64,000 nucleotides of DNA, from NCBI RefSeq assembly GCF_045037415.1, contig NZ_CP173438.1; one strand, given 5' to 3'. Both the position numbers and the translations under genes were made by a program. Of this stretch, positions 5,126-54,298 are shown piece by piece. Below the pieces are notes generated by a model that had not been told where the DNA came from, searched no databases, and saw only the letters and a list, made by a program, of their open reading frames with translations. The stretch's first letter is position 1, and each line of letters opens with the position of its first letter. The DNA comes from Escherichia coli (GTDB lineage Bacteria > Pseudomonadota > Gammaproteobacteria > Enterobacterales > Enterobacteriaceae).

Positions 5126-5161
5126 GAAATGCAAACAACTTCCATCAAAAAAGTGACAAAG
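5126..5161 (+). repeat. Copy A of a ~36-bp conserved element (AATGCAAACAACTTCC..CAAAAAAGTGA), upstream of mppA
   Basis: Near-identical to 8237..8273 (about 33 of 38 positions by eye). Confidence 0.7.
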
Positions 5162-14999: not shown

Positions 15000-15998
15000 A
15001 TGTCCCCTACTATTTATGATATTGCCAGGGTTGCAGGCGTATCAAAATCCACCGTATCACGCGTGCTGAATAAGCAAACCAATATCTCCCCGGAAGCGCG
15101 CGAAAAAGTGTTACGGGCCATTGAAGAATTACAGTATCAACCAAACAAGCTGGCCCGCGCGCTGACCTCTTCGGGTTTTGATGCCATTATGGTGATTTCT
15201 ACTCGTTCGACCAAAACTACGGCGGGTAATCCATTTTTCTCTGAAGTTTTGCATGCCATCACCGCCAAAGCAGAAGAAGAAGGTTTCGACGTGATATTAC
15301 AAACGTCGCACAATCCGGCAGAAGATCTGCAAAAATGCGAAAGCAAAATTAAGCAGAAAATGATTAAAGGCATTATTATGCTAAGTTCGCCTGCCGATGA
15401 ATCCTTCTTTGCACAACTCGACAAATACGAGATCCCGGTGGTGGTGATCGGTAAAGTTGAAGGTCAATACAGCCATGTTTATTCCGTCGATACCGATAAT
15501 TATGGCGACAGTATTGCGCTGACCAATGCGTTAATTGAAAGCGGGCATAAGAATATAGCCTGCCTGCATGCGCCGCTTGATGTACAAGTTTCAGTGGATC
15601 GGGTAAATGGTTATAAGCAAAGTCTGGCTACGCATAATATTGCAGTGCGTGATGAATGGATTGTTGACGGCGGTTATACCCATGAGACAGCATTAAAAGC
15701 AGCACGGGAATTATTAAGCCAGTCACCGTTGCCTGAGGCAGTGTTTGCTACTGACAGCCTGAAATTAATGAGTATTTATCGTGCGGCGGCAGAGAAAAAC
15801 ATTGCTATTCCGCAGCAGTTAGCGGTGGTGGGTTATAGTAATGAAACGCTGTCGTTTATATTAACGCCTGCACCAGGCGGCATCGATGTTCCGACGCAGG
15901 AGTTAGGTCAACAAAGCTGCGAGTTATTATTCCAGTTAATTGCCGGAAAACCGTCACCACAAAATATTACCGTTGCTACGCATATGTCGTTGAAATAA
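15000..15998 (+). CDS. ycjW: LacI-family transcriptional repressor YcjW
   Basis: 332-aa ORF; N-terminal LacI HTH ([21 protein letters not shown]) and periplasmic-binding-protein-like sensor domain. Confidence 0.9.
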
Positions 15999-16048: not shown

Positions 16049-16954
16049 TCAGAACGAGTAATTCACCCCAACACCCGCATAATGGAATTTATCGCTGTCG
16101 CCTTCGTCGTGATCCTGCCACTCAAACGCGTATTCCAGCGAAACGGAAAGACCATTCTGGAAATCATAACCGTAAAATAAACCCACACGGTTAAAATCAT
16201 GGCCTTCACGTTCAATATCATCCTGCCAGTCCCAGTTACTCCAGCGATCCAGCCCAATGCGCGTATACGGCGTCACCGAGTGGTTGCCGAGCGTCAGCGG
16301 CAAATAGGCGCGAATTTCTTGCGTGGAAAACTCACCGTTATTGCGGCTATCATCCATATTGAAACCACGCTCGAGATAATAGTTCACTCGCAAGGCAACC
16401 GTTTCGTTGAAGGTATATTGCAGACCCGTTTCCGTTTCGACACGGGTATCAGCATAACCGGTCGTATTCAGATCGTTGGCAAATTTATACATCGACAGCC
16501 AACCGTTGAAACGTAAATCGTCAGTCAGTTTCACATCCCAGTCTGGCGCGATTTTCCAGCGCTGCATATTTGCCGTGTCTTTACCCGGTTCATCAACGTA
16601 GTGATAACCATAGTTACGGAAACCACCAGTCAGACCGAGACTGAAATCATCGCTTTCGAGGAACTGATAATGTACCTCCAGCTCCGGGCGATCAAACCAC
16701 GTTCCACGTTTACCCGCGCTATAATCTACCGGCCCTTCCTGATAATAGGCCAGAGAAATTCTCCACGGCCCGTTGGCGGCATTAAAATAGACAGAAGGCT
16801 CTGCCAGCCCATCCATATCTTCGACATAACCCTCGACGTTTTCTATTTCGTACATCGCGCCGATATTAAAGTGCCAGTTGTTCTTTTCCTCGGCCTGTGC
16901 GCAGGCCATTCCCGCACACATCACCAGTGCGGTACAGGGTAATAACTTTTTCAT
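16049..16954 (-). CDS. ompG: Outer membrane porin OmpG
   Basis: ORF 16049..17005; start placed at MKKLLPCTALVMCAGMACA (signal peptide) giving 301 aa; C-terminal aromatic residue. Confidence 0.9.
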   Translation of the reverse strand: MKKLLPCTALVMCAGMACAQAEEKNNWHFNIGAMYEIENVEGYVEDMDGLAEPSVYFNAANGPWRISLAYYQEGPVDYSAGKRGTWFDRPELEVHYQFLESDDFSLGLTGGFRNYGYHYVDEPGKDTANMQRWKIAPDWDVKLTDDLRFNGWLSMYKFANDLNTTGYADTRVETETGLQYTFNETVALRVNYYLERGFNMDDSRNNGEFSTQEIRAYLPLTLGNHSVTPYTRIGLDRWSNWDWQDDIEREGHDFNRVGLFYGYDFQNGLSVSLEYAFEWQDHDEGDSDKFHYAGVGVNYSF

Positions 16955-16998
16955 TATTGTTCCTTGTATTATCCTGGGAGAATGCCTTCCCCCTGTAT

Positions 16999-18081
16999 TT
17001 AGCAAATTGCTATTTCCGTTTCTGCATCAAAGAAATGACATTTAGTCATATCAAAATGAATAGTGATATTTTCTCCTGCATGATAATCATTTAACGCACC
17101 AGCACGGACCACTAACTCGTGCCCCCCAACCGTGGTGTAGAGCATAAATTCCGCACCGGTTAATTCCGCCACGCTAATTTTGGCGGAAATGTTATTTTCT
17201 TCTTGCGCATCCGGATGAATATCCTCCGGGCGTATTCCCATCACAATGGGTTTATGTAAACTTTCCTGCGTTTTCAGAACCGCTAATTTCTCTTCGGGAA
17301 TGGTTAATTTAAGTGTTTCCGTAACGAATTTATCGCCATCGATCGTGCCGCGAATAAAATTCATTGCTGGTGACCCAATAAATCCGGCAACAAACATATT
17401 CGCCGGTTGGTTATAGACCGTTTTCGGCGCACCGACCTGCTGAACAATCCCATCCTTCATAATGACAATCCGCGTCGCCATGGTCATCGCTTCGGTCTGA
17501 TCGTGGGTCACGTAGATCATGGTGGTGTTCAGTTTCTGATGCAGCTTGCTGATCTCTGCGCGCATTTGCACACGCAGCTTGGCATCCAGGTTAGAGAGCG
17601 GCTCATCCATTAAAAACACGCCCGCTTCGCGCACAATCGCCCGCCCAAGCGCCACTCGCTGACGTTGCCCGCCGGAAAGCGCGCCCGGCTTGCGTTTCAG
17701 GTACTCACGCAGGCCGAGGATTTGCGCCGCCCAGTTAACCCGCTCATCAATCATCTCTTTGGCGATTTTTTGTATCTTCAGGCCAAACGCCATGTTGTCG
17801 TAGACCGTCATATGCGGATACAGCGCGTAGTTCTGGAACACCATCGCGATATTGCGTGCTTTGGCTGGAACGTCATTCATTCGTTTGCCGTCGATCAACA
17901 GCTCACCGCCGCTGATCTCCTCAAGCCCGGCAATCATACGCAGGGTGGTCGATTTACCGCAGCCCGACGGACCGACAAACACGATGAACTCTTTATCGGC
18001 AATCTCCAGGCTGAAGTCCTTCACCACATGCACCTGGTTATCGTAGATCTTTTGAATATGTTGTAACGAAAGCTGTGCCAT
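16999..18081 (-). CDS. ycjV: ABC transporter ATP-binding protein YcjV (MalK/UgpC-like), apparently intact
   Basis: 360-aa ORF; Walker A GPSGCGKST, signature LSGGQRQRV, Walker B FLMDEPLS and a C-terminal MalK-type regulatory domain. Confidence 0.9.
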   Translation of the reverse strand: MAQLSLQHIQKIYDNQVHVVKDFSLEIADKEFIVFVGPSGCGKSTTLRMIAGLEEISGGELLIDGKRMNDVPAKARNIAMVFQNYALYPHMTVYDNMAFGLKIQKIAKEMIDERVNWAAQILGLREYLKRKPGALSGGQRQRVALGRAIVREAGVFLMDEPLSNLDAKLRVQMRAEISKLHQKLNTTMIYVTHDQTEAMTMATRIVIMKDGIVQQVGAPKTVYNQPANMFVAGFIGSPAMNFIRGTIDGDKFVTETLKLTIPEEKLAVLKTQESLHKPIVMGIRPEDIHPDAQEENNISAKISVAELTGAEFMLYTTVGGHELVVRAGALNDYHAGENITIHFDMTKCHFFDAETEIAIC

Positions 18082-18094
18082 GTTGATTCCTTTG

Positions 18095-18754
18095 CTATAC
18101 GTTTTGCCAGAAGGCCGATAACCGCGGCCAGGTCAGGGAGTCCGTTGAGGGCAACAATAATTGCGCCCCGGTTAAGCCCGCGCCGATCCCCACCGAGCGC
18201 ATACCGCTGGCGTTAATGGCGTCAATGCCCGCCTGCGCATCTTCAATGCCGATACATGCCTGTGGCGGCACGCCCAGCCCTGCACAGGCGGCGAGAAAGA
18301 TTTCCGGGTCCGGTTTCGAATTTTTGAGTTGGGAAGCGTCCGCGCAGAAGGTGAAAAACTCGCGCAGCTCCAGCGCTGCTAAAATCGTCGGCGCATTCAG
18401 GGAGACAGAAGCCAGCCCAACTGGAATCTGCTGTGCCCGGAGATCTACCAGCAAATTGTGAATGCCAGGCAGCACAGCATTAACCGTCAGTTCGCGCAGT
18501 GAGTGGACGTAAAGCAGATTTTTGCGATACGCCAGTTGCGCCCGTTCCTGTGGGTTAAAATCGCCCTCTTTACCCCCGTGCTGCAGAATTCGCCGCAGGG
18601 ACTCATCGCGGCTGATCCCTTTTAGGAATTCGTTAAACTGCGCATCAATGCTGATGCCAATTTCAGCGGCAATCTGCTGCCACGCCTGGAAATGCAGATG
18701 CGCGGTATCGGTGATTACTCCATCCAGATCGAAAATTACCCCTTGCAGTTTCAT
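18095..18754 (-). CDS. ycjU: Beta-phosphoglucomutase (HAD superfamily)
   Basis: 219-aa ORF; HAD motif [11 protein letters not shown]. Confidence 0.9.
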
Positions 18755-21018
18755 TCACCCTCCTGATGCGTGGTAGCGGTCCCATTGAAGGGCAAAATAA
18801 AATCCCCCAAACAGAAAACAGATTCTTCAGCGACGTAAATAAGCTGACCGTTCAAACGCAGTGAAACAGGCGCAGAAGTTCGAATCGCAATACGCTGCGC
18901 GTCGAGAGTGACCTGTAATTCGCAGCCCTGCCAGAACAGAGGGAAAGACAACTGTTGCCACTGCTCAGGTAACGCCGGATTGAGATGTAATTCACCGTCA
19001 CGCACGCTCACCCCGGCAAAACCCTGAATCGCCCCCAGCCAGATAGCGCCAGTTGCGGCAGCGTGGATACCGTCATCACAGCTATGCGGATCAGCACCAA
19101 GATCGATTTCAGTCCCCTCGCGCCAGAACTGATAACTTTGGGTCAGCAGGCCACAGCGTGCGGCAACAATGCCGTGGATTGCTTTACTTAATGACGAGTC
19201 GTGAATAGTGCGCGGTTCATAAAATTGCAGATTGGCAAGACACGATGCCGCTGAGAACTGCTCCGGCAGCATGTAATTGAGCATCACCACATCAGCTTGT
19301 TTGAGGATCTGCATCTCGTTCACTTCTGCGCGTGAATAATCCAGCAGAATGGTTTGCTTCCCCGCCGCCGCTTTGTATTTCGCCAGATTAATCACCGGCT
19401 TAGCCATAAACGAATCATCCTGCGGCAAAACGCCGTCGGGCTGAATTTCTGGCAGCCGCAGTTCTTTGAGGTACATTTCTGCACGATGAATAAACGCGTC
19501 GTCGCTACAGCCAAACTGACGAGCGATATTCAGCGCCTGCTGGACGTTGTAATACGCCATATAGCTGGTGAAGGCGTTATTATTGACATGTTCGGTATAT
19601 TCGTCTGGCCCAATAACATCATGAATTTCCAGACGCTCGTTAACCCTCACCGCGCGGCTAATCCAGAACTTTGCCGTCTCCAGAAGTAGCGCCATGCCTT
19701 CATGAGCAATGAAACTTTCATCCCCCGTGGTCCGCCAGTATTGAATCACCGCCCAGGCGATATCGGCGACCAGATGGTGTTCCGCCTGCGCAGAGGCCAC
19801 TTTTTGCCGCAGCCCGGTACGAATGTTAATGGCGGCAAATTCCGGCGTCTCTTCTTCGCCGCTACGCGCGCTTTCCCACGGAAACAGAGCGCCCTGCCAG
19901 CCGTTGCGTCGCGCTTTCTCCTGCGCGCCAGGCAAGTTGTGCCAGCGATAACGCAGTAAACTTCGGGCAACCGTCGGATCGCTAAACAGATGGAACGGTA
20001 GCAAAAATACTTCTGTATCCCAGAAAACGTGGCCTTTGTAGCCTTCGCCGGTTAAACCTTTCGCCGCAATGCTGCTGCGCTCATCGTGGGCAGGCGTCAT
20101 GATGCGCAGGTGATAAAGCGCATAATCTAATGCTTGCTGATCGTGCGCATCGCGGCCGTTTACCGTGATACGACGTTTCTGCCACCATTGACGCCAGTTT
20201 TCTGTTGATGCTGCAAGAAGTTGGTCGTAACTCTGCTGCGCGCACATTTCAAGCTGACGAAGCGACGCACTGCCCCATTCGTCTAAAGCGGCTTGTCTGT
20301 CGTCCCGCCAGTCGATCCACACCAGTTTTTGCAGCGTCAGCGTCTCACCTGCGTGAAGCTGCGCGCAGGTATGTTGCAATAAACGGCGCTCTTTGGCGGT
20401 ATAGCATTGCTGCACATCACCGCTCACCTTACAGCAACAGCTGATGGCCACATCACTACGCCCATCCTGGGTGGTGTAGATCCCCTGCATCAGATGCTGA
20501 CCAAACACCCGCACCTGGATTTCGTCAATATGCTGGCGACCGTGGTTGGTTTGCGTGGCGTCAATGCCTGTTGAAATCAGCACTGACGCGTCGGCGTCCA
20601 GTGGAGTAATAGTGATTTCCAGCGCAATGAGCGGCAGTTGGTCTGCCGAAACAAAGCGACGGCTGGCGATGGTGTAACCAGTGCCGTTGCTGGTACGCCA
20701 GACAACGTTGCGACGTAATTCGCCACTGGCAAAGTTAAGCTCACGCTGCCATGCTTCGCGGGATAACGAGAAAATCTCACCATTTATGGCAATCTCCATC
20801 CCCACGACATCAGGCAGGTTCACCAGTTCGTTGATTTCTCCTTTACCCGCTCGATGATACAGCCCCGCCAGATACATCCCACGGGTCTGGCGCGTGTAAT
20901 CTTCTTCATGGCTGGCACGAAGCCCAAGATAGCCGTTCCCCTGCGCCATCAGCGAAGCATACTTGTTCAGGGTATGCTGGCTGAAATGGGGTTCTGATAA
21001 CGTTACTGGCCTGGTCAT
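18751..21018 (-). CDS. ycjT: Kojibiose phosphorylase (glycoside hydrolase family 65)
   Basis: 755-aa ORF; GH65 architecture; synteny in the ycj cluster. Confidence 0.9.
18769..18785. promoter_or_regulatory. Candidate YcjW (LacI-family) operator, inside the last codons of ycjT and just upstream of ycjU
   Basis: CGTGGTAGCGGTCCCAT, identical over 17 bp to 28696..28712; fits the LacI-family core TGnnAnCGnTnnCA. Confidence 0.6.
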
Positions 21019-22070
21019 AATTCCACACGCGTCCCTGTTTCCGCGGATTGATACAACGCCGCCACCAGTTGCTGGATGATGTACCCCTGCTCGGCGTCGG
21101 CTATCATCACGGGCTTGCCCTGTACGTGATTGATAAAGGCTTCCATGCTGCGCAAATGGCGGTTGTCGTCTGCCATTTCCCGTTGCATCAGCGTCATTAA
21201 TTCACCGTTGTTATCGGTGTAGATATGTGCCGGAAACAGCGTCGCACCGGCTTTATCACCACAAAAGCTGACATTCATAATCGACTGTTCGCGGATGTTG
21301 AGTGCAAATGACGTTTCCAGCCACAGAATGCCGCCGTTATGAAATTCAATGGTGCCAAACAGCGAATCTTCAACGCTGTAAGTTGCCGGGTCCCACTCGC
21401 CAAATTGACCACAGCTCTTTTGCGTGCCGATCTTTTGAAAGCTATGCGCATTCACGCTTTTCACCGCCGGAAAGCCCAGCACATACATCGCAGCATCCAG
21501 CATATGAATGCCGATGTCGATCAGCGGGCCACCACCCTGCAGTTCTTTATTGGTAAAGACACCCCAGCCGGGAACGCCGCTGCGACGCAGGGCGCGGGCG
21601 GTGGTAACGTAAATCTCTCCCAAAACGCCGTTGGTCACCTGTTCACGCAGCTGTTGCGTATCGAACGCAAAACGATGGTGAAAGTCGTAGGCCAGCACCT
21701 TGCCCTGTTTGCGCGCGGTATCGCACATTTCCCGCGCCTGTTCTGCCGTCATGGCGGGCGGTTTTTCGCACATCACATGGCAGCCCGCTTCAAGCGCCAT
21801 CAGGGTATGTTCGTAATGAAAACGGTTCGGTGAGCAGACGCTAACCACATCAGGTTTCACCGCCAGCAGCATGGCCTGCGGATCGTCCCACAAGGATGCA
21901 TTACCGTATTTTTCTGCCAGCGCCTGCGCCTGGGAAAGGCGGCTGTCACAGACGGCCACCAGTTCCAGATCGTTGCGGGTGCAGTAGTACGAAGCATGAA
22001 CCTTATCCGCCACCTGGCCTGCGCCGATTATCGCGACACGCAGCGGAGAGCTTGTCATTGCACTTTTCAC
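21015..22070 (-). CDS. ycjS: Gfo/Idh/MocA-family NAD-dependent sugar dehydrogenase YcjS
   Basis: 351-aa ORF; N-terminal Rossmann fold VAIIGAGQVA. Confidence 0.85.
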   Translation of the reverse strand: MKSAMTSSPLRVAIIGAGQVADKVHASYYCTRNDLELVAVCDSRLSQAQALAEKYGNASLWDDPQAMLLAVKPDVVSVCSPNRFHYEHTLMALEAGCHVMCEKPPAMTAEQAREMCDTARKQGKVLAYDFHHRFAFDTQQLREQVTNGVLGEIYVTTARALRRSGVPGWGVFTNKELQGGGPLIDIGIHMLDAAMYVLGFPAVKSVNAHSFQKIGTQKSCGQFGEWDPATYSVEDSLFGTIEFHNGGILWLETSFALNIREQSIMNVSFCGDKAGATLFPAHIYTDNNGELMTLMQREMADDNRHLRSMEAFINHVQGKPVMIADAEQGYIIQQLVAALYQSAETGTRVEL

Positions 22071-22079
22071 AAAGACCTC

Positions 22080-22868
22080 TTAGCAGGTGCGCAACCAGGC
22101 CAACGAATCACGGTACGCCTGGGCAGGAGCTTCTGCCCGGATACGCCCTTCATACACCACATAACCCTGATAGTTATCGGCGCGCAGCTGTTCAAACAGC
22201 GCGTGGAAATCGAGGGTGCCGCTGCCCGGCTGGTAACGATGGTTATCGGCAATATGCACATGACCGAGCAAGTCGCGGTGGTCATGCAGCGCCTGCGCCA
22301 GGTTATCTTCTTCGATGTTCATGTGATAGAAATCGCCGATAATCTGCACATGTTTAAGATCGTTTTCGACGATGTAACGGCGGGCATCGGCGAGAGTATT
22401 GATCATATGATCCTGATAACGGTTTAACGGTTCGAGATACACCACGGTTCCGGTACGCGCGGCGACCTGTTCCAGTACGCGCAGGGAATCACTCACCATT
22501 TTGCGGTCGCCGTCCAGGCTGCGCGGCGAGGTCATCGGCGGTAAACGGAAGGTAAACATGCCCCATGCAGCAGGAACGACGATACCTTTACCGCCCACTT
22601 CTGCCAGCGCTTCGAGAATGCGTTCGATCTGCTTTAAGCCATTAAGACGACGCTCTTCGATAAAATCACCAATCCAGCCGTCATAGCCGCCGCAGGCAGT
22701 GGTCACCGGTAAACCGGTTTCTTTGATCGCCGCTTTGACTTCTTCGATGTTGTTGACCAGCAGTTTGCCGTCAATCTCAAAACCATCGAAGCCCATCTCT
22801 TTGATGTAACGAAATTTCTCCAGAATATTTCCCGGAAAGAATGCCTGATTCTGTGTGCCTATTTTCAT
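22080..22868 (-). CDS. ycjR: Sugar-phosphate isomerase/epimerase (xylose-isomerase-like TIM barrel) YcjR
   Basis: ORF 22080..22997; start placed at MKIGTQNQAFF (ATG at 22866-22868) giving 262 aa. Confidence 0.85.
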   Translation of the reverse strand: MKIGTQNQAFFPGNILEKFRYIKEMGFDGFEIDGKLLVNNIEEVKAAIKETGLPVTTACGGYDGWIGDFIEERRLNGLKQIERILEALAEVGGKGIVVPAAWGMFTFRLPPMTSPRSLDGDRKMVSDSLRVLEQVAARTGTVVYLEPLNRYQDHMINTLADARRYIVENDLKHVQIIGDFYHMNIEEDNLAQALHDHRDLLGHVHIADNHRYQPGSGTLDFHALFEQLRADNYQGYVVYEGRIRAEAPAQAYRDSLAWLRTC

Positions 22869-22885
22869 TTTTTCATTCCTTTGAA

Positions 22886-23938
22886 TTAAAACGTAACGCC
22901 CATTTTGATGCTCTGTTCCGGATGCTGATCGACATACTGCATGTAGCTTTCCGGGCTGTTGGCAAAGGTCACTACCGGGTCGATTAAATCTTCGCAATTG
23001 AGATAACCGTTCATCAGCAGTTCCCAGCAGGTTTCTTCAATACGCTTACGGCTCCAGCGCGGATAATCCGGGTTCGGTTCGCTGCACGCGCGGGAGAAAA
23101 CAATTTTGGCGTTATTGAAATGCGCTTCGCGTCCGAGGTTAAAACCTTCAGCAAATGGTTTGGCAAACGCGACATAGGAGATGGTGCCGCCGTAGGCCAG
23201 ACCGCGGAGCGCCGACTGCAGCGCGTCGGCGTAGCCGCTGGTTTCGATAATCACATCGGCACCCTGCTTGCCGGTCAGCGTTTTGATCTCTTTACCTACG
23301 TCAGCGCCAATGGGGTTAAGACAGAAATCCGCACCGTGGCGACGGGCAATATCACAGCGATGAGCGATAGGATCGACACCAATCACCACCGACGCGCCAG
23401 CGCGTTTTGCCAGTTGAATGGCAATTTGACCAATCGTGCCAAGCCCTACCACCACCACAAAATCGCCCACGCGCACGTTGGCATCGCGCACGCCGCTCAT
23501 GGCAAACTGCGCCGGGTCGTAACAGACGGCGTTTTTCCAGGAGCTGCCTTGCGGCATTTTGCGCAGCTTGTAGTTATTCACTGCGTTAATGATGACCGTC
23601 TCGGAGAGCGGGCCGTAGCCGCATACGCTGTCGCCCACCGCGTAGTCGTTAACGTCGCTGCCGCACTCGATAATGTCGCCAACCACCATGTTGCCAAGCT
23701 GGAACTTGCCAAACTCAATGCCGCGCGGCGCATTTGCCGGACGCGGGCTGAACATCTGCCATTCACCGTTAAAGTCTTCATCGATAAACGGACTGGCAGC
23801 GCGGAAATCGACCACTTCCGTCCCGTGCTTCGGAGCGCCGAAACGCACGCGGATCTTCACTTCATTGGCTAAAATCGCCCGCTCTTCATACTCAACCAGC
23901 GCAGCTACACGCGGTGCTGTGGCTACTAACTTTTTCAT
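22886..23938 (-). CDS. ycjQ: Zinc-binding medium-chain alcohol/sugar dehydrogenase YcjQ
   Basis: 350-aa ORF; MDR-family NAD-binding GxGxxG (VVGLGTIGQ). Confidence 0.85.
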   Translation of the reverse strand: MKKLVATAPRVAALVEYEERAILANEVKIRVRFGAPKHGTEVVDFRAASPFIDEDFNGEWQMFSPRPANAPRGIEFGKFQLGNMVVGDIIECGSDVNDYAVGDSVCGYGPLSETVIINAVNNYKLRKMPQGSSWKNAVCYDPAQFAMSGVRDANVRVGDFVVVVGLGTIGQIAIQLAKRAGASVVIGVDPIAHRCDIARRHGADFCLNPIGADVGKEIKTLTGKQGADVIIETSGYADALQSALRGLAYGGTISYVAFAKPFAEGFNLGREAHFNNAKIVFSRACSEPNPDYPRWSRKRIEETCWELLMNGYLNCEDLIDPVVTFANSPESYMQYVDQHPEQSIKMGVTF

Positions 23939-23968
23939 GTAAAACTCCTTGTAAAGAAATTGGTCGCT

Positions 23969-24811
23969 TTAGCCCTTCACGCCACCAGCGGTCAAACCAC
24001 TCTTAATAAAACGTTCCGAAAGCGCATACATAATCACTACCGGTAGTGCGGTCACCAGCGAGGCCGCCATCATCCGTCCCCAGATGTAATCAGGCGTACT
24101 GAACAGCGCGTTCAGGCCCACAGGTAAGGTGAAATTGCTGGCGCTGGAAAGGAAAATCGACGCAAACAGATAGTCGTTCCACGCCACCATAAAGCAGTAG
24201 ACGAATACGGATATCAGCCCGGACATTGCCAGGGGCACGGTGATACGGAAGATAATTTGCAGACGATTGAGGCCATCCATCATTGCCGCTTCTTCGATTT
24301 CATCGGGGATGGTGTCGAAGTAGCTTTTCAGCATAAACACGGCGGTAGGCAGAGTTTGCGTCACCATGGTGATAATCAGCGCCATCTCGGTGTCGTAAAT
24401 GCCAAGTGCGGTGATGATTTTGAACAGCGGCACCACCAGCAAAATGCCGGAGAACATGTACACCGTGTAAAAGCTGGCGTTGATGGTCATTCGCCCTTTA
24501 AAGCGCAGGCGGGAAAGCGCGTAAGCCCCAAGAATGCCGAGAAATACCGCCACCACGGATGAAACCACCGACACCACCATGCTGTTACGGAAGTAGTCGA
24601 CAAACGGGAAAATCACCGGATTAAAAATGTCGACGTAATGCTCCAGCGTCCACTGCTGTGGCAGCAACGTAGGATGCAGCGAGATCGCCTCTTTTGCGCT
24701 CTTGAACGAGGTCATCAGCATCACAAAAAATGGAAACAGCGTGATGATGAGAAACAGCGCCAGCCCGCAGTAAAAACCGATTCGACTGAGTGTGCGTTTA
24801 TTTGTTGCCAT
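23969..24811 (-). CDS. ycjP: ABC sugar transporter permease YcjP
   Basis: 280-aa ORF; multiple TM helices and MalG-like EAA loop region. Confidence 0.85.
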   Translation of the reverse strand: MATNKRTLSRIGFYCGLALFLIITLFPFFVMLMTSFKSAKEAISLHPTLLPQQWTLEHYVDIFNPVIFPFVDYFRNSMVVSVVSSVVAVFLGILGAYALSRLRFKGRMTINASFYTVYMFSGILLVVPLFKIITALGIYDTEMALIITMVTQTLPTAVFMLKSYFDTIPDEIEEAAMMDGLNRLQIIFRITVPLAMSGLISVFVYCFMVAWNDYLFASIFLSSASNFTLPVGLNALFSTPDYIWGRMMAASLVTALPVVIMYALSERFIKSGLTAGGVKG

Positions 24812-25679
24812 TGAGGTTCACCCGTTTCCTGGTCAGCAGAATGACAGCGAAAATAATGATGAAAAGCACCACCGAGATCGCCGCCGCTTTCCCTAAGTCA
24901 TTAAAGGCAAAGGCGGTTTTGTAGAGATAGACACCGAGAATATCGACCTTGGTCGTCAGCAGATAAACATCCGCGAACATGTAGAACATCCAGATAGTGC
25001 GCAGGGTCACCACCGTCGCCAGAACCGGCATAATCGCGGGCAGCGTGACGATGCGAAACCGTTGCCAGGCATTCGCGCCATCCATCTCTGCCGCTTCGTA
25101 CAGCGATTTGTCGATGGTCTGCAAAATCGCCAGAAACGAGATAAAGGCATACGGGAAGTAGCGCCAGATGGCGAACAGCACCACCAGCACAAAACTACTG
25201 CCCGGGTTATCGAACCACAGCGGCGCCTGCTCATAGAGATGCAGAAGATCGACGCCGAGGTAGTTCACAATGCCGTAGCCGTTGTTGAACATGTATTTCC
25301 AGGCGAACACCAGCGAAATAGACGGCGTTACGTAGGAAAGGATCACCAGCGAACGCGCGGTTTTGCGCAGGCGGAACTCGCGGTTGAAAAACATCGCCAC
25401 GGCCAGCCCGAGCACGGTGCTGCCCGCCACCACAAGCGCGGTATACCAGACCGTCATCCACAGCGAGTGCCAGAAACCAGGATCGGAGAGAATGCGCACA
25501 TAGTTACTCACCCCAACAAACGTTGACTCGATGTTGGGATTAAGCGGCAGACGTAAAAAACTGATTTCGATATTCGACACCATCGGCCACGCCACCAGAC
25601 CGCCCAGCAGTAATAAGCTGGGCGCGAGAAGCAACAGCGCAAAGGGCATATCGGAACGACCTGAAAAAAGCCTGTTCAT
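24798..25679 (-). CDS. ycjO: ABC sugar transporter permease YcjO
   Basis: 293-aa ORF; MalF-like permease; 14-bp overlap with ycjP. Confidence 0.85.
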   Translation of the reverse strand: MNRLFSGRSDMPFALLLLAPSLLLLGGLVAWPMVSNIEISFLRLPLNPNIESTFVGVSNYVRILSDPGFWHSLWMTVWYTALVVAGSTVLGLAVAMFFNREFRLRKTARSLVILSYVTPSISLVFAWKYMFNNGYGIVNYLGVDLLHLYEQAPLWFDNPGSSFVLVVLFAIWRYFPYAFISFLAILQTIDKSLYEAAEMDGANAWQRFRIVTLPAIMPVLATVVTLRTIWMFYMFADVYLLTTKVDILGVYLYKTAFAFNDLGKAAAISVVLFIIIFAVILLTRKRVNLNGNK

Positions 25680-25699
25680 TGCGGATTCCTGTCCTGGGT

Positions 25700-26992
25700 T
25701 TAGCGCTGTTCGACCAACTCATCCAGCTTTTTCTGGCTCGCTTGCAGCGTGCCAGGGAGGTCGGCTTTACCCACGGTGACGTTATGCACCATTGAACTCA
25801 CCACACCAGACCCCGTCACATCACCCATGCGGGTAAAGTTTTTATCCCCTACTGCGCCAAAGACCTGAATATTTGGCAATTCGCTGATTAGCTGATTCGG
25901 CAATTCTCCCAGCGCCTTAATAACGTCGTTGTCTTTCCAGGTGGCGGTAGTGACAACCGCTTTGTTCACCGGCAGCGCCGCGCCTGGTGACATCATCACC
26001 CAGTCGGCAATGTTGTCCGCCTGCTCCATAAAGGTGACAAATTTTTCAGCCGCTTCGGTCTCTTCAGTCTTTTGCCCGGCGGTAATGGTCAGCGAGGTCA
26101 ACATGCCGTAGACCGCAGAATTTTTCTCGGTTGGCACCACGAAACCAACGTTTTTCGGATCGCCTTCTTTAATCACAGCCGGAAGGATATAGGTGGAGTA
26201 AATCGCCATCGGCGCGGTGCCGTTCATAAAAGCGTCTTTCACTTCCATGATGTCGTTAGAACCTGGCATGGTGTTGGCAGCAAGGTTGCGGTAATAGGTC
26301 AGCGCCTGCATCATCTCTGGTGTATCAAGGGTGATTTTGCCTTCGGCGTTAAAGACGTTAGCCTGATTGGATAACGCAAACTGGGAGAAAGACTGTTCCG
26401 TCAACACGCTTTCTGCTGTAGGCAGCGCAATACCGTATTTTTTATTCGCCGGGTCATTCAGTTTCTGTGCAACGTCCAGCAATTGCTGCCAGTTTTTTGG
26501 CTCCTCCAGCCCAGCTTTTGCCAGCACATCTTTGCGATACCAGATCCCGCCAATCCATGCGCTGACAGGAACACCGGTCCAGGCGCTGCCATCTTCGGTG
26601 CGCACAATCCGCAGTACGCCATCGTAGAACGCGCCTTCACCGACGTTGCTGATGACCGTGGCAACCGCTTTACGATCGATAAGCTGCTCTTTGTCCATCA
26701 CTTTGGCGTAGTCATGGCTGGTTTCGATCACTTCCGGCAGCGAACCGCTACGTGAAAGGGTAATGACTTTGGTGTTATAGGCGTCTTCTTCCACGGGCAC
26801 TTGTTTTACGGTGATACCTGGGTTTTCTTTTTCAAAACGGGCAATCAATTTGCTGATGACGGCCTGGCGCTCCTGCTCCACCGAAGAATGCATAAATTCG
26901 ATGGATACATTATTTTTATTTTCTTCTTTACAGCCTGAAATCAGGGCGCAGGAAACCAGTGCTGATAACAGCACGATTTTTGATTTAATCAT
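25700..26992 (-). CDS. ycjN: Periplasmic sugar-binding protein YcjN (ABC transporter)
   Basis: 430-aa ORF; lipoprotein-like signal (LISGC); SBP family 1. Confidence 0.85.
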   Translation of the reverse strand: MIKSKIVLLSALVSCALISGCKEENKNNVSIEFMHSSVEQERQAVISKLIARFEKENPGITVKQVPVEEDAYNTKVITLSRSGSLPEVIETSHDYAKVMDKEQLIDRKAVATVISNVGEGAFYDGVLRIVRTEDGSAWTGVPVSAWIGGIWYRKDVLAKAGLEEPKNWQQLLDVAQKLNDPANKKYGIALPTAESVLTEQSFSQFALSNQANVFNAEGKITLDTPEMMQALTYYRNLAANTMPGSNDIMEVKDAFMNGTAPMAIYSTYILPAVIKEGDPKNVGFVVPTEKNSAVYGMLTSLTITAGQKTEETEAAEKFVTFMEQADNIADWVMMSPGAALPVNKAVVTTATWKDNDVIKALGELPNQLISELPNIQVFGAVGDKNFTRMGDVTGSGVVSSMVHNVTVGKADLPGTLQASQKKLDELVEQR

Positions 26993-27005
26993 GAAATGTT
27001 CCTTT

Positions 27006-28685
27006 TTATTTAATCCACATAACCTGCCAGGGATGCAGTGTTATTTCATTACCCAATATATCAACTTCACTAATCAGATCCCGACCGTGCAGGTCAGTAA
27101 TATTTATATGCTGAATATTTTCGCTGACATTAAACAATCCCGTCAGGCAATCGCCATCCGCATTGCTTCTTTGAATTCGCATTACAAATGAATTAATTGC
27201 ATCGATGGTGAAATTATTATCCGGATGAAACTCTTTATGACTGCGACGAAGGGTAATTAAATGCGACAACTTATAATATACCGAATACCTTAATGTCGCT
27301 TTATTGTCCAGTTCTGTCGTTATCTCTTTACTAGAGTATTTTTTACGGTTAATCGCGCGATTATATCCAAGTTTTTCGACACCGGCGTAATCATTACGCG
27401 ACCCCAGAATGCTTTGAATATATATCGCTGGCACACCGGGGAAACTTAACAAAATCGCATGGGCGAGAATAAACCTGGCACACCGTTCTTCGTCGCTACA
27501 CTCACGGCGGCTCAACGCATCCATATAGGTGACATTCATTTCATAGGGGCTACGCGTACCGTCGGGATTATTTTTCCAGTTTACTAATGCCCCTTCCTGC
27601 TGTAACACCTCGACCAGCGCTAATATTTCGTTTTCGGGTAACAACCCCCGCAGTGGGTTAAGCCCGATGCCATCGTGAGAGGCAAGGAAGTTAAACCAGG
27701 TGGTGTTGCTGGAAGGTAGTGTCAGGTTTTGCGCCCACGCACAAAGTGCCTCAACGTTCTGTTTTTGCACCGCATGCAGCACCAGCGGCGGCAGCGAGAA
27801 CTGGTACACCATATGCGCTTCGTCATCGCCTTCGCCAAAGTAAGCAATGTTGTCTTTATGCGGAACATTGGTCTCGGTAATGATCACTGTGCCTGGCGCG
27901 ACGTTATCAATAATCGAACGTAACAGTTTGATAATCAGATGTGTTTTTTCCAGATGGATGCAGTTTGTTCCCGGCTCTTTCCACATAAAGCCAACGGCAT
28001 CCAGACGGACATACTCTGCGCCCTTTTCCAGGTAGCACAGCAATACATCCACCATCGCCAGCAACACTTCAGGGCTACGGTAATTGAGGTCAATTTGATC
28101 GTCGCTAAAGGTGGTCCATAAATGACGCGTTGAATGATCGCGCATCTGGAATGGCGTTAATAACGGTAACGCACGCGGGCGAGTGACGGCGCTGAGATCG
28201 GTTTTCGGATCAACGGTAATAAAAAAATCTTCAAAACCTGGCTGCTGTTGTAAATAGTTTTTAAACCATTCACTTTTTGCCGACATATGGTTGCAGACAA
28301 AATCAAACATTAAATGGCTGCATTCACCGAGTTGCTGAATATCCTGCCACTCCCCCGCTTCACTGGCGACCTGATGATAATCAATTACCGAAAATCCATC
28401 ATCAGATGACCATGGATAAAAAGGTAATAAATGAACATGTGAAAAAATTCTTTGCAGCCATTGAGGGTAAAACTGATTAAATGTGGGTAGTGGCTTTAAA
28501 TCATTACTGTGAAATTGATCGGCATAGGTAATTAACACGACATCACTTTCATCCCAGTGTTTTTTACGTCGCTGTGTAATTAATCGTTTCGCACTCTCAA
28601 GACGCGTTACAAGTTTCTGTAAATGAGTCGCGGTAAATGTTCCACCGTAGATTTCGTCCAGGTAATCCGTAATTTTCTGTTGCAT
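27006..28685 (-). CDS. ycjM: GH13 sucrose-phosphorylase-like enzyme YcjM (reported glucosylglycerate phosphorylase)
   Basis: ORF 27006..28712; start placed at MQQKITDYL (ATG at 28683-28685) giving 559 aa. Confidence 0.85.
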   Translation of the reverse strand: MQQKITDYLDEIYGGTFTATHLQKLVTRLESAKRLITQRRKKHWDESDVVLITYADQFHSNDLKPLPTFNQFYPQWLQRIFSHVHLLPFYPWSSDDGFSVIDYHQVASEAGEWQDIQQLGECSHLMFDFVCNHMSAKSEWFKNYLQQQPGFEDFFITVDPKTDLSAVTRPRALPLLTPFQMRDHSTRHLWTTFSDDQIDLNYRSPEVLLAMVDVLLCYLEKGAEYVRLDAVGFMWKEPGTNCIHLEKTHLIIKLLRSIIDNVAPGTVIITETNVPHKDNIAYFGEGDDEAHMVYQFSLPPLVLHAVQKQNVEALCAWAQNLTLPSSNTTWFNFLASHDGIGLNPLRGLLPENEILALVEVLQQEGALVNWKNNPDGTRSPYEMNVTYMDALSRRECSDEERCARFILAHAILLSFPGVPAIYIQSILGSRNDYAGVEKLGYNRAINRKKYSSKEITTELDNKATLRYSVYYKLSHLITLRRSHKEFHPDNNFTIDAINSFVMRIQRSNADGDCLTGLFNVSENIQHINITDLHGRDLISEVDILGNEITLHPWQVMWIK

Positions 28686-28695
28686 GTTGCCTTTC

Positions 28696-28712
28696 CGTGG
28701 TAGCGGTCCCAT
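28696..28712. promoter_or_regulatory. Candidate YcjW (LacI-family) operator in the ycjM leader
   Basis: CGTGGTAGCGGTCCCAT about 10-27 bp upstream of the ycjM start codon; twin of 18769..18785. Confidence 0.6.
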
Positions 28713-28856
28713 GAAGCGAGAGACTACTCCGCATAAAATAAACTGTCAATTGAGCTCAAGGGGTTTAGTCACGCAGGAAATCTTTTTTTACCTGGGAAAA
28801 AGCGTATTTGTGAGCTGACGCAAATAATCTATGGGGATGTAAATAAGGTGTGACAG

Positions 28857-28878
28857 AAAAAAACGGCGCATAAGCGCC
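28857..28878 (-). terminator. Rho-independent terminator downstream of pspE
   Basis: Minus strand: GGCGC-TTAT-GCGCC hairpin followed by TTTTTTT. Confidence 0.7.
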
Positions 28879-28895
28879 GCTCATGGTGAATTCTT

Positions 28896-29210
28896 TTAAC
28901 CTTTGACCTTCGGCATTGCGATGTCTTTCAGGCCACCGGCGTTCTCAACGTGGGTATATCCCATCTCGCTAAGGATCTCTTTTGCCTGCCCTGACTGGCG
29001 TCCGGCATTGCAATACACTTTCACGGTGTCGTTTTTATCCGGAACGGCGGTAGCAATGCGCTCTTTCACTTCCTTCAGGGGAATATTGATGGCCCCCTGA
29101 ACGTGCTCTTGCTGATACTGCTCTGGAACACGAACATCGATCCAGTGTTCAGCGGCGAAAACGGGCAGTGAAAACACCAGTGTCAGAGCAAGTAAGCCTT
29201 TTTTAAACAT
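28896..29210 (-). CDS. pspE: Periplasmic rhodanese (thiosulfate sulfurtransferase) PspE
   Basis: 104-aa ORF with signal peptide and rhodanese active-site region (VKVYCNAGRQS). Confidence 0.95.
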   Translation of the reverse strand: MFKKGLLALTLVFSLPVFAAEHWIDVRVPEQYQQEHVQGAINIPLKEVKERIATAVPDKNDTVKVYCNAGRQSGQAKEILSEMGYTHVENAGGLKDIAMPKVKG

Positions 29211-29284
29211 GTAAGCGTCCTTCTATGGATGAAAATTGCTATCCATTATACGCCTGAGATTTAACCATTTTTGCGAAACTCCCC

Positions 29285-29506
29285 TCACCTTTTATAACGC
29301 TGCGCCAGTTTATTGGCAGCCCGACTTAACAGCGGTTCCAGCGCCACAGCCAGCAACATTTTCAGCGGTCGGCGAGCAACTGATTTTATCGCCCAGCCCG
29401 CCACACCCGCCGGGCCATAGCGCAGTGCGGTAAGAAGTACCAGCTTGCCTGCTAATTTGAACCCAGGCTTCACCTTTTGCCCGGCCTGTTGCCAGCGAGT
29501 ATTCAT
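29285..29506 (-). CDS. pspD: Phage shock protein D
   Basis: ORF 29285..29518; start placed at [10 protein letters not shown] giving 73 aa. Confidence 0.85.
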
Positions 29507-36429: not shown

Positions 36430-37421
36430 TGCCATTACTCGATATTCGTAACCTGACCATTGAATTTAAAACCGGTGATGAGTGGGTTAAAGCCGTCGAC
36501 CGCGTAAGTATGACCTTAACCGAAGGTGAAATCCGCGGTCTTGTTGGCGAATCCGGTTCCGGTAAAAGTTTGATTGCGAAAGCGATTTGTGGGGTGAATA
36601 AAGATAACTGGCGTGTTACTGCTGACCGTATGCGTTTTGATGATATCGATTTGCTGCGTCTCTCCGCACGCGAACGGCGCAAGCTGGTTGGTCACAACGT
36701 GTCGATGATTTTCCAGGAACCGCAGTCGTGTCTTGACCCTTCAGAACGTGTGGGTCGCCAGTTGATGCAAAACATCCCAGCCTGGACCTATAAAGGCCGT
36801 TGGTGGCAGCGTTTTGGCTGGCGCAAACGCCGTGCCATTGAACTGCTGCACCGCGTGGGGATTAAAGATCACAAAGATGCGATGCGCAGTTTTCCCTATG
36901 AGTTGACCGAAGGCGAATGTCAGAAAGTGATGATAGCCATTGCACTGGCGAATCAACCGCGTCTGCTGATTGCTGACGAACCGACAAACTCAATGGAGCC
37001 AACAACCCAGGCGCAAATCTTTCGCCTCCTGACGCGTCTCAACCAAAACAGCAATACCACTATTTTGCTTATCAGCCATGACTTACAAATGCTTAGCCAA
37101 TGGGCGGATAAAATTAACGTGCTTTACTGCGGTCAAACGGTGGAAACCGCGCCGAGTAAGGAGTTGGTGACGATGCCACACCATCCTTATACCCAGGCGC
37201 TGATCCGCGCGATACCAGACTTCGGCAGCGCGATGCCGCATAAAAGTCGCCTCAATACGCTGCCCGGCGCTATCCCGCTACTGGAACAGTTACCGATTGG
37301 TTGTCGTCTGGGGCCACGTTGCCCGTATGCACAACGAGAATGCATTGTGACGCCACGTTTGACGGGGGCGAAAAATCATCTCTATGCCTGTCATTTCCCA
37401 CTGAACATGGAGAAAGAGTGA
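36429..37421 (+). CDS. sapD: ABC transporter ATP-binding protein SapD
   Basis: 330-aa ORF; Walker A GESGSGKS. Confidence 0.9.
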
Positions 37422-45769: not shown

Positions 45770-45795
45770 TTCTGTCTCCTGGCCTATCACTTGGT

Positions 45796-45827
45796 GAGAA
45801 TGATCATTCTCATTTTTGCTAATTATA
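45796..45827 (-). promoter_or_regulatory. Candidate promoter -10 with overlapping palindromic operator for the TetR-family gene
   Basis: Minus strand: TATAAT at 45822-45827, then 10 bp, then perfect 16-bp palindrome GAGAATGATCATTCTC (45796-45811), about 27 bp before the start codon. Confidence 0.5.
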
Positions 45828-54174: not shown

Positions 54175-54270
54175 TCGTAAATAAATGTCGATTATCGACT
54201 CGCAATTATAATACGCTTGATTCTGTTCAGTACGAAATAACTGAATAATACACACAGTAAAATATTCGAA

Positions 54271-54298
54271 AGCCACGGATATATCCGTGGCTTTTTAT
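54271..54298. terminator. Bidirectional terminator between convergent osmB and yciH
   Basis: Perfect 22-bp palindrome AGCCACGGAT-AT-ATCCGTGGCT followed by TTTTAT. Confidence 0.7.

Follow-up and report, generated by a model that had tools for sequence, protein, structure and literature searches.

A 17-nt word, CGTGGTAGCGGTCCCAT on the plus strand, is present in two exact copies, at positions 18769-18785 and 28696-28712, within the 64-kb stretch of Escherichia coli DNA analysed here (the window). The question raised by this pair is whether the two copies are operators of a common repressor and, if so, which protein binds them, which genes each copy controls and how this control relates to the neighboring psp operon. 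The positions of the two copies had been given in an earlier note on this DNA, and an exact search of the window confirmed them. The surrounding sequence is the psp/ycjMNOPQRSTUV-ompG/ycjW region of E. coli, in which the psp and ycj genes lie on the minus strand. The region was found in 5422 of 5426 complete E. coli genomes, and the tested kilobase is 100% identical to E. coli chromosomes; gene coordinates were taken from the RefSeq annotation of identical DNA (window position = locus L001 position + 14299). Following the direction of transcription on the minus strand, the pspABCDE genes (through 29210 and beyond) include pspE, encoding a thiosulfate sulfurtransferase (28896-29210), and are followed by ycjM (27006-28685), which encodes a glucosylglycerate phosphorylase and is the first gene of the repressed operon. 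The genes ycjN to ycjS are located between ycjM and ycjT (18751-21018), and the unit continues with ycjU/pgmB (18095-18754), ycjV (16999-18081) and ompG (16049-16954), giving a ycjMNOPQRSTUV-ompG transcription unit at 16049-28685 that is under the control of both copies of the word. In the window strain, ycjV is intact and encodes a 360-aa ABC ATPase; in K-12, ycjV/ymjB are annotated as pseudogenes. The same locus contains a gene for a cognate repressor of the LacI/GalR family, ycjW (15000-15998, plus strand, 332 aa), whose K-12 counterpart b1320 carries the RefSeq name "DNA-binding transcriptional repressor YcjW". The copy in front of ycjM is referred to as site 1 and the copy at the ycjT/ycjU junction as site 2; the minus-strand orientation of the genes and the location of the second copy inside the ycjT coding sequence were points on which the earlier note was silent.

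No third copy of the word was detected in the whole window, even when up to three mismatches were allowed, and the chance expectation for this word is 0.09. Exact repeats of this size are nevertheless not very rare in 64 kb, with five independent exact repeats of at least 17 nt in the window and an average of 0.6 repeated 17-mers in shuffled windows, so the meaning of the pair rests on its context and not on repetition as such. Other exact repeats of at least 17 nt in the window include an inverted pair at 1387/4398 and a direct pair at 5127/8238. On the minus strand, the 17-mer has the sequence ATGGGACCGCTACCACG and can be decomposed into A-TGGGACCGCTACCA-CG, which places the 14-bp core TGGGACCGCTACCA at 28698-28711 in site 1 and at 18771-18784 in site 2. 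An imperfect palindrome centered on CG is a hallmark of LacI-family operators, and this is the form that the core takes: TGGTAGCGGTCCCA and its reverse complement share 10 of 14 positions around a central C|G. A scan of the window with the symmetric pattern TGGNANCGNTNCCA at zero mismatches retrieved the two operator sites only. Relaxing these searches within the window yielded no further YcjW sites, as the 14-mer with up to three mismatches gave chance-level matches only, at 1115 and 57275, and the symmetric pattern with up to one mismatch gave one match, at 37165, that is likewise at chance level.

Published binding data identify the protein that recognizes the core. In a ChIP-seq study of YcjW, one of the two most enriched regions preceded the start codon of ycjM, the other was placed "between ycjT and ycjU", and a 14-nt motif was common to both (Luhachack et al., 2019; Nat Commun 10:2868; PMC6599011). 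In the same work, purified YcjW shifted a 50-bp ycjM probe in an electrophoretic mobility shift assay (EMSA), the shift was competed by cold probe, kojibiose at 0.5-1 mM disrupted the YcjW-DNA complex although trehalose and sucrose did not, and the genes of the operon were strongly upregulated in a ycjW deletion. The ycjM probe, LL58, has the sequence GAGTAGTCTCTCGTTTCATGGGACCGCTACCACGGAAAGGCAACatgAAAC (PMC6599011) and corresponds to window positions 28728-28679 on the minus strand, with the 17-mer at its center and two SNPs outside of it. The primer table of that study contains no site-2 probe, and the published EMSA covers site 1 only. A later ChIP-exo study reported ycjU (S/N 1665) and ycjM (S/N 840) far ahead of all others as the top YcjW peaks, derived a palindromic YcjW motif and, in its supplement, modeled YcjW as a dimer (Gao et al., 2021; NAR 49:9696; PMC8464067). 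After conversion of the ChIP-exo coordinates from NC_000913.2 to NC_000913.3, the ycjU peak (peak 20, 1380110-1380139) falls exactly on site 2, the core of which starts at 1380118. The converted "ycjM" peak (peak 18, 1370297-1370332, approximately window 28569-28604) is situated about 81-116 bp inside ycjM, which is about 100 bp downstream of site 1, and no good YcjW-like motif is present under it. A weaker YcjW peak (S/N 38) was listed 67-104 bp into ycjN. Taken from these published data, occupancy in vivo is documented for site 1 by ChIP-seq and for site 2 by both ChIP-seq and ChIP-exo.

With these results, the suggestion of the earlier note that the pair represents LacI-type operators is borne out by ChIP-seq, EMSA, release by kojibiose and de-repression in the ycjW deletion (PMC6599011) and by ChIP-exo (PMC8464067). 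Thus, the 17-mer very probably holds the 14-bp operator of YcjW, with site 1 positioned over the predicted transcription start of ycjM, site 2 controlling ycjU-ycjV-ompG and kojibiose acting as the inducer. Kojibiose, the substrate of YcjT, releases YcjW from the DNA and induces the operon. The twin operators, the repressor, the inducer and the operon are already known from a 2019 publication and its confirmation in 2021, and the value of the present analysis is mainly that of correct annotation. The closest known system is accordingly that of K-12, which shares the locus, the two positions of the 14-bp motif and the adjacent repressor gene; differences to the window strain are at the strain level only and comprise AA versus CG next to the site-2 core, the ycjV pseudogene versus an intact gene, and the two SNPs relative to the EMSA probe, which are located in the ycjM leader and in its second codon. 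The opposite reading, that the repeat is a coincidence or a by-product of the coding constraint acting on site 2, without any function in regulation, could draw on the frequency of 17-mer repeats given above and on the fact that site 2 is coding sequence. It has been refuted already by the published data, in which ChIP-seq and ChIP-exo independently place YcjW on these sequences in vivo and an EMSA does so in vitro, and it also conflicts with the palindromic symmetry around the central CG and with the absence of synonymous change from the site-2 core across genera in which YcjT is only about 62% identical; its probability is close to nil.

The extent of the conserved unit was assessed by scanning one genome per species, 100,044 species in total, for the exact 17-mer. 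Among the 50 loci obtained, 28 belong to Enterobacteriaceae, where every one of them (28 of 28) is found at one of two orthologous positions and three genera are represented. The remaining 22 loci are spread over unrelated, mostly G+C-rich genomes, which fits an estimate of about 35 chance matches. The 17-mer was the search criterion, so that its invariance among the loci retrieved is by construction; independent of this selection are the orthologous placement, the conserved promoter in front of site 1 and site 1 of Enterobacter quasihormaechei. This last site was not selected by the scan and reads cgTGGGACCGCTACCAtg, in which the core is retained at 14 of 14 positions and the flanks differ, in a species whose YcjM is 67% identical. 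At site 1, the core TGGGACCGCTACCA is invariant in 10 species of three genera. The three additional bases of the 17-mer vary, with other letters in K-12 at site 2 and in Enterobacter at site 1. The site-2 sequence of K-12, ATGGGACCGCTACCAaa, has AA after the core (L052 11633-11634) where the window strain has CG (18769-18770), so that sites 1 and 2 have just 15 nt in common in K-12. Because the flank of K-12 site 2 differs, the conserved unit is the 14-mer core, and the identity over 17 nt is a trait of the window strain and many of its relatives; the analysis thus adds to the published description that function resides in the 14-mer core and not in the full 17-mer. The AA of K-12 looks derived, because the window strain, E. 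whittamii, Citrobacter and Enterobacter all have CG at this place, and the exchange alters a C-terminal residue of YcjT. Two of the loci, L017 and L018, originate from a metagenome-assembled genome labeled "Citrobacter sp." (HRGM_Genome_0066); they encode Ycj and Psp proteins 93-100% identical to those of E. coli and, in contrast to genuine Citrobacter loci, contain pspE. This bin is probably mislabeled or contaminated.

For site 1, the annotated start of ycjM places the 17-mer 11-27 nt upstream of the ATG, in good agreement with the 10-27 bp given in the earlier note. On the minus strand, it is preceded by a putative promoter in which TTGACA (predicted -35, 28749-28744) is followed by 17 nt, TAGTCT (predicted -10, 28726-28721) and a further 8 nt before the 17-mer begins; both elements were read by eye and from an alignment. 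A consensus promoter scan around site 1 called nothing, and the promoter escaped the scanner because its -10 element agrees with the consensus at only three of six positions. In the alignment of ten species of Escherichia, Citrobacter and Enterobacter, TTGACAG and the core are both invariant, the spacing is constant, GTAGTCT is kept and replaced by GTAGATT in Enterobacter (-10 TAGATT), and the upstream sequence and the ycjM N-terminus diverge. The transcription start of ycjM is therefore predicted at about 28712-28714, which would yield a leader of approximately 27 nt. The literature searched contains no experimental transcription start for ycjM, and an Rfam scan of 28300-29300 returned no known RNA family. 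As the 17-mer begins 8 nt past the -10 element, site 1 would cover the predicted start from about +1 to +17, and a YcjW dimer bound there may sterically block either binding of RNA polymerase to the sigma-70 ycjM promoter or its escape from it. The location of this promoter by cross-genus conservation, with the operator over the predicted start, is a second addition to the published picture. The arrangement resembles that of lacO1 and LacI, in that an imperfect palindrome with a central CG lies just downstream of the -10 element (predicted for ycjM) and over the start (likewise predicted for ycjM) and is bound by a LacI-family repressor that is released by a sugar.

The predicted start also bears on where ycjM translation begins. 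Site 1 contains an ATG (28712-28710), and if this were the true start codon of ycjM, possibly on a leaderless mRNA, the 17-mer would be coding sequence instead of leader. The reading frame 27006-28712 on the minus strand is indeed in frame from 28712 and would specify 568 aa with nine additional codons (MGPLPRKGN), the frame is open in Citrobacter too, and the predicted transcription start falls at or beside the A of this ATG. Enterobacter, however, has a GTG at this place that is out of the ycjM frame and is followed by an in-frame stop, and RefSeq selects the downstream ATG in both strains, upstream of which a Shine-Dalgarno-like GGAAAGG is found. Initiation at the upstream ATG is thus highly improbable.

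Site 2 differs from site 1 in its context. It is not intergenic, as it resides inside the 3' end of ycjT, where its codons specify N-G-T-A-T-T, and it precedes by 15-31 nt the ycjU ATG, which is located at 18754 and overlaps the ycjT stop codon. Escherichia, Citrobacter and Enterobacter all have the site at the orthologous position, and its sequence block shows no synonymous change across these genera, even though YcjT is only about 62% identical, and both the ycjT codons beside the site and the ycjT/ycjU overlap differ between genera. This retention of site 2 within a reading frame in three genera, without any synonymous change, is a third addition to the published description. A consensus promoter scan around site 2 returned nothing, and no conserved promoter was found in front of it; a TATTTT located 8 nt upstream of site 2 in E. 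coli, with the same spacing as at site 1, is absent in Enterobacter. Site 2 may represent a second YcjW control point, over ycjU-ycjV-ompG. Because no conserved promoter precedes it, we infer that it most likely acts either as an elongation roadblock or on a weak, perhaps lineage-specific, internal promoter. Intragenic roadblock operators are known for other members of the LacI family, including the PurR site in purB and the CcpA cre sites inside reading frames. Site 2 is similar to these in its intragenic position, midway through a transcription unit, and in its strong occupancy, and it differs in that a roadblock is only proposed here and in that the site is also directly in front of the ycjU ribosome-binding site, as a promoter-proximal operator would be.

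The occurrence of two operators for one repressor suggests a further possibility, namely that sites 1 and 2 are bridged by a single YcjW oligomer in a looped repression complex comparable to lacO1 and its auxiliary operators. The identical cores, the very strong occupancy of both sites in vivo and the preservation of the site pair in three genera can be cited in its favor. Known operator pairs of the family are spaced by 92 and 401 bp for LacI and by 113 bp for GalR, and the 9,927 bp between sites 1 and 2 far exceed these distances. In a search of PDB sequences, YcjW aligned over its full length to LacI-family structures (E = 5e-49 to 1e-22), with the dimeric PurR and CcpA as the best matches; its residues 4-319 align to LacI 5-313, and the 13 residues that remain at its C-terminus leave it without a counterpart of LacI residues about 330-360, the tetramerization helix. 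The modeling of YcjW as a dimer (PMC8464067) agrees with the dimeric state of its closest solved relatives. A looped pair calls for a repressor able to bridge, as a tetramer or through an architectural partner, and for operators within a few hundred base pairs of each other, and the YcjW sites offer neither. Because the architecture of YcjW is dimeric, lacking the tetramerization helix, and its second site is 9.9 kb away and not 92 or 401 bp as in the lac system, lac-type looping is not expected and the bridged complex is considered very unlikely. The main text of the comparative study of the LacI family by Ravcheev (2014) does not mention YcjW.

The proximity of site 1 to the psp operon had led the earlier note to propose that read-through or de-repression could couple psp and ycj expression. 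Its estimate of roughly 150 bp between the pspE terminator and the 17-mer was accurate, the terminator being positioned about 140-150 bp upstream. Of the proposed coupling, one part has experimental support: by qRT-PCR, the mRNA of pspE, and not that of pspA, pspB or pspC, rises in a ycjW deletion (PMC6599011). That publication makes no mention of a terminator, of read-through or of a roadblock, and it offers no mechanism for the rise of pspE. The part that does not hold up well is the route. If transcripts passed the pspE terminator into ycjM and were gated by YcjW bound to site 1, psp induction would be linked to ycj expression, and the two genes are indeed co-directional, with about 185 bp from the pspE stop codon to site 1 and with psp-ycj adjacency kept in Escherichia, Citrobacter and Enterobacter; the increased pspE mRNA in the ycjW deletion could also be seen as a sign of a connection. 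Coupling of adjacent operons by read-through, however, depends on a weak or absent terminator, and the predicted intrinsic terminator of pspE (GAGCGGCGC-TTAT-GCGCCGTTT followed by a T-run, 28853-28882 on the minus strand, stem 28882-28861) is strong, with a 9-bp stem containing six G-C pairs, a 4-nt loop, a U7 tract, a folding energy of -16.3 kcal/mol and a z-score of -3.4. In addition, ycjM has its own conserved promoter with a consensus -35 element. The published link moreover runs in the opposite direction, since pspE, a gene upstream of the operator, goes up when YcjW is lost and pspABC do not change, and the ChIP-exo table lists no YcjW peak between acnA and ycjM (PMC8464067).

The gene neighborhood argues in the same direction. 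A comparison of the pspD-ycjM interval in loci L002, L007, L015, L024, L035 and L037 revealed that pspE is located between pspD and ycjM in the Escherichia loci only, and that ycjM directly follows pspD in Citrobacter and Enterobacter. These two genera retain the same ycjM promoter and operator though pspE is missing from the orthologous spot, and any link between YcjW and pspE would therefore be specific to Escherichia. Given the strong terminator and the separate ycjM promoter with its consensus -35 element, read-through from psp is improbable. That pspE is a neighbor of ycjM only in Escherichia is a further addition of this analysis, as it bears on how YcjW influences pspE and H2S production. 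The only candidate YcjW site near the pspE promoter, TGGAACCGCTGTTA at 29327-29340 on the minus strand, inside pspD, was considered and rejected. It combines a good left half-site with a poor right half and has four mismatches to the core, 16 kb of K-12 contain eight other matches of equal quality in addition to the two operators, and the likely -10 element of pspE, TATAAT (29245-29250), follows after about 80 bp; the ChIP-exo table lists no peak at this candidate.

A more speculative proposal extends the control by YcjW in two directions. Site 2 could serve as a roadblock, or "second lock", that keeps the large-pore porin OmpG together with YcjUV off despite leakage from the ycjM promoter, and the de-repressed ycjM promoter, about 0.5 kb downstream of the pspE promoter, could activate the latter via negative supercoiling. 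The combined proposal is tentative and considered rather unlikely. If it were true, supercoiling generated from the ycjM promoter would explain the rise of pspE mRNA in ycjW mutants.

Two sequence features elsewhere in the window were recorded as observations in their own right. The hairpin AAAGCCACGGATATATCCGTGGCTTT, which is another of the exact repeats of at least 17 nt, is located at 54269-54294. A perfect 18-bp palindrome, TGAGAATGATCATTCTCA, is found at 45795-45812, about 25 bp upstream of a minus-strand gene for a TetR/AcrR regulator that has fabI and an efflux cluster as neighbors. Among 5426 E. coli genomes, only 2033 carry at least 80% of the 1 kb tested in this region, and the palindrome is probably a TetR-type operator.
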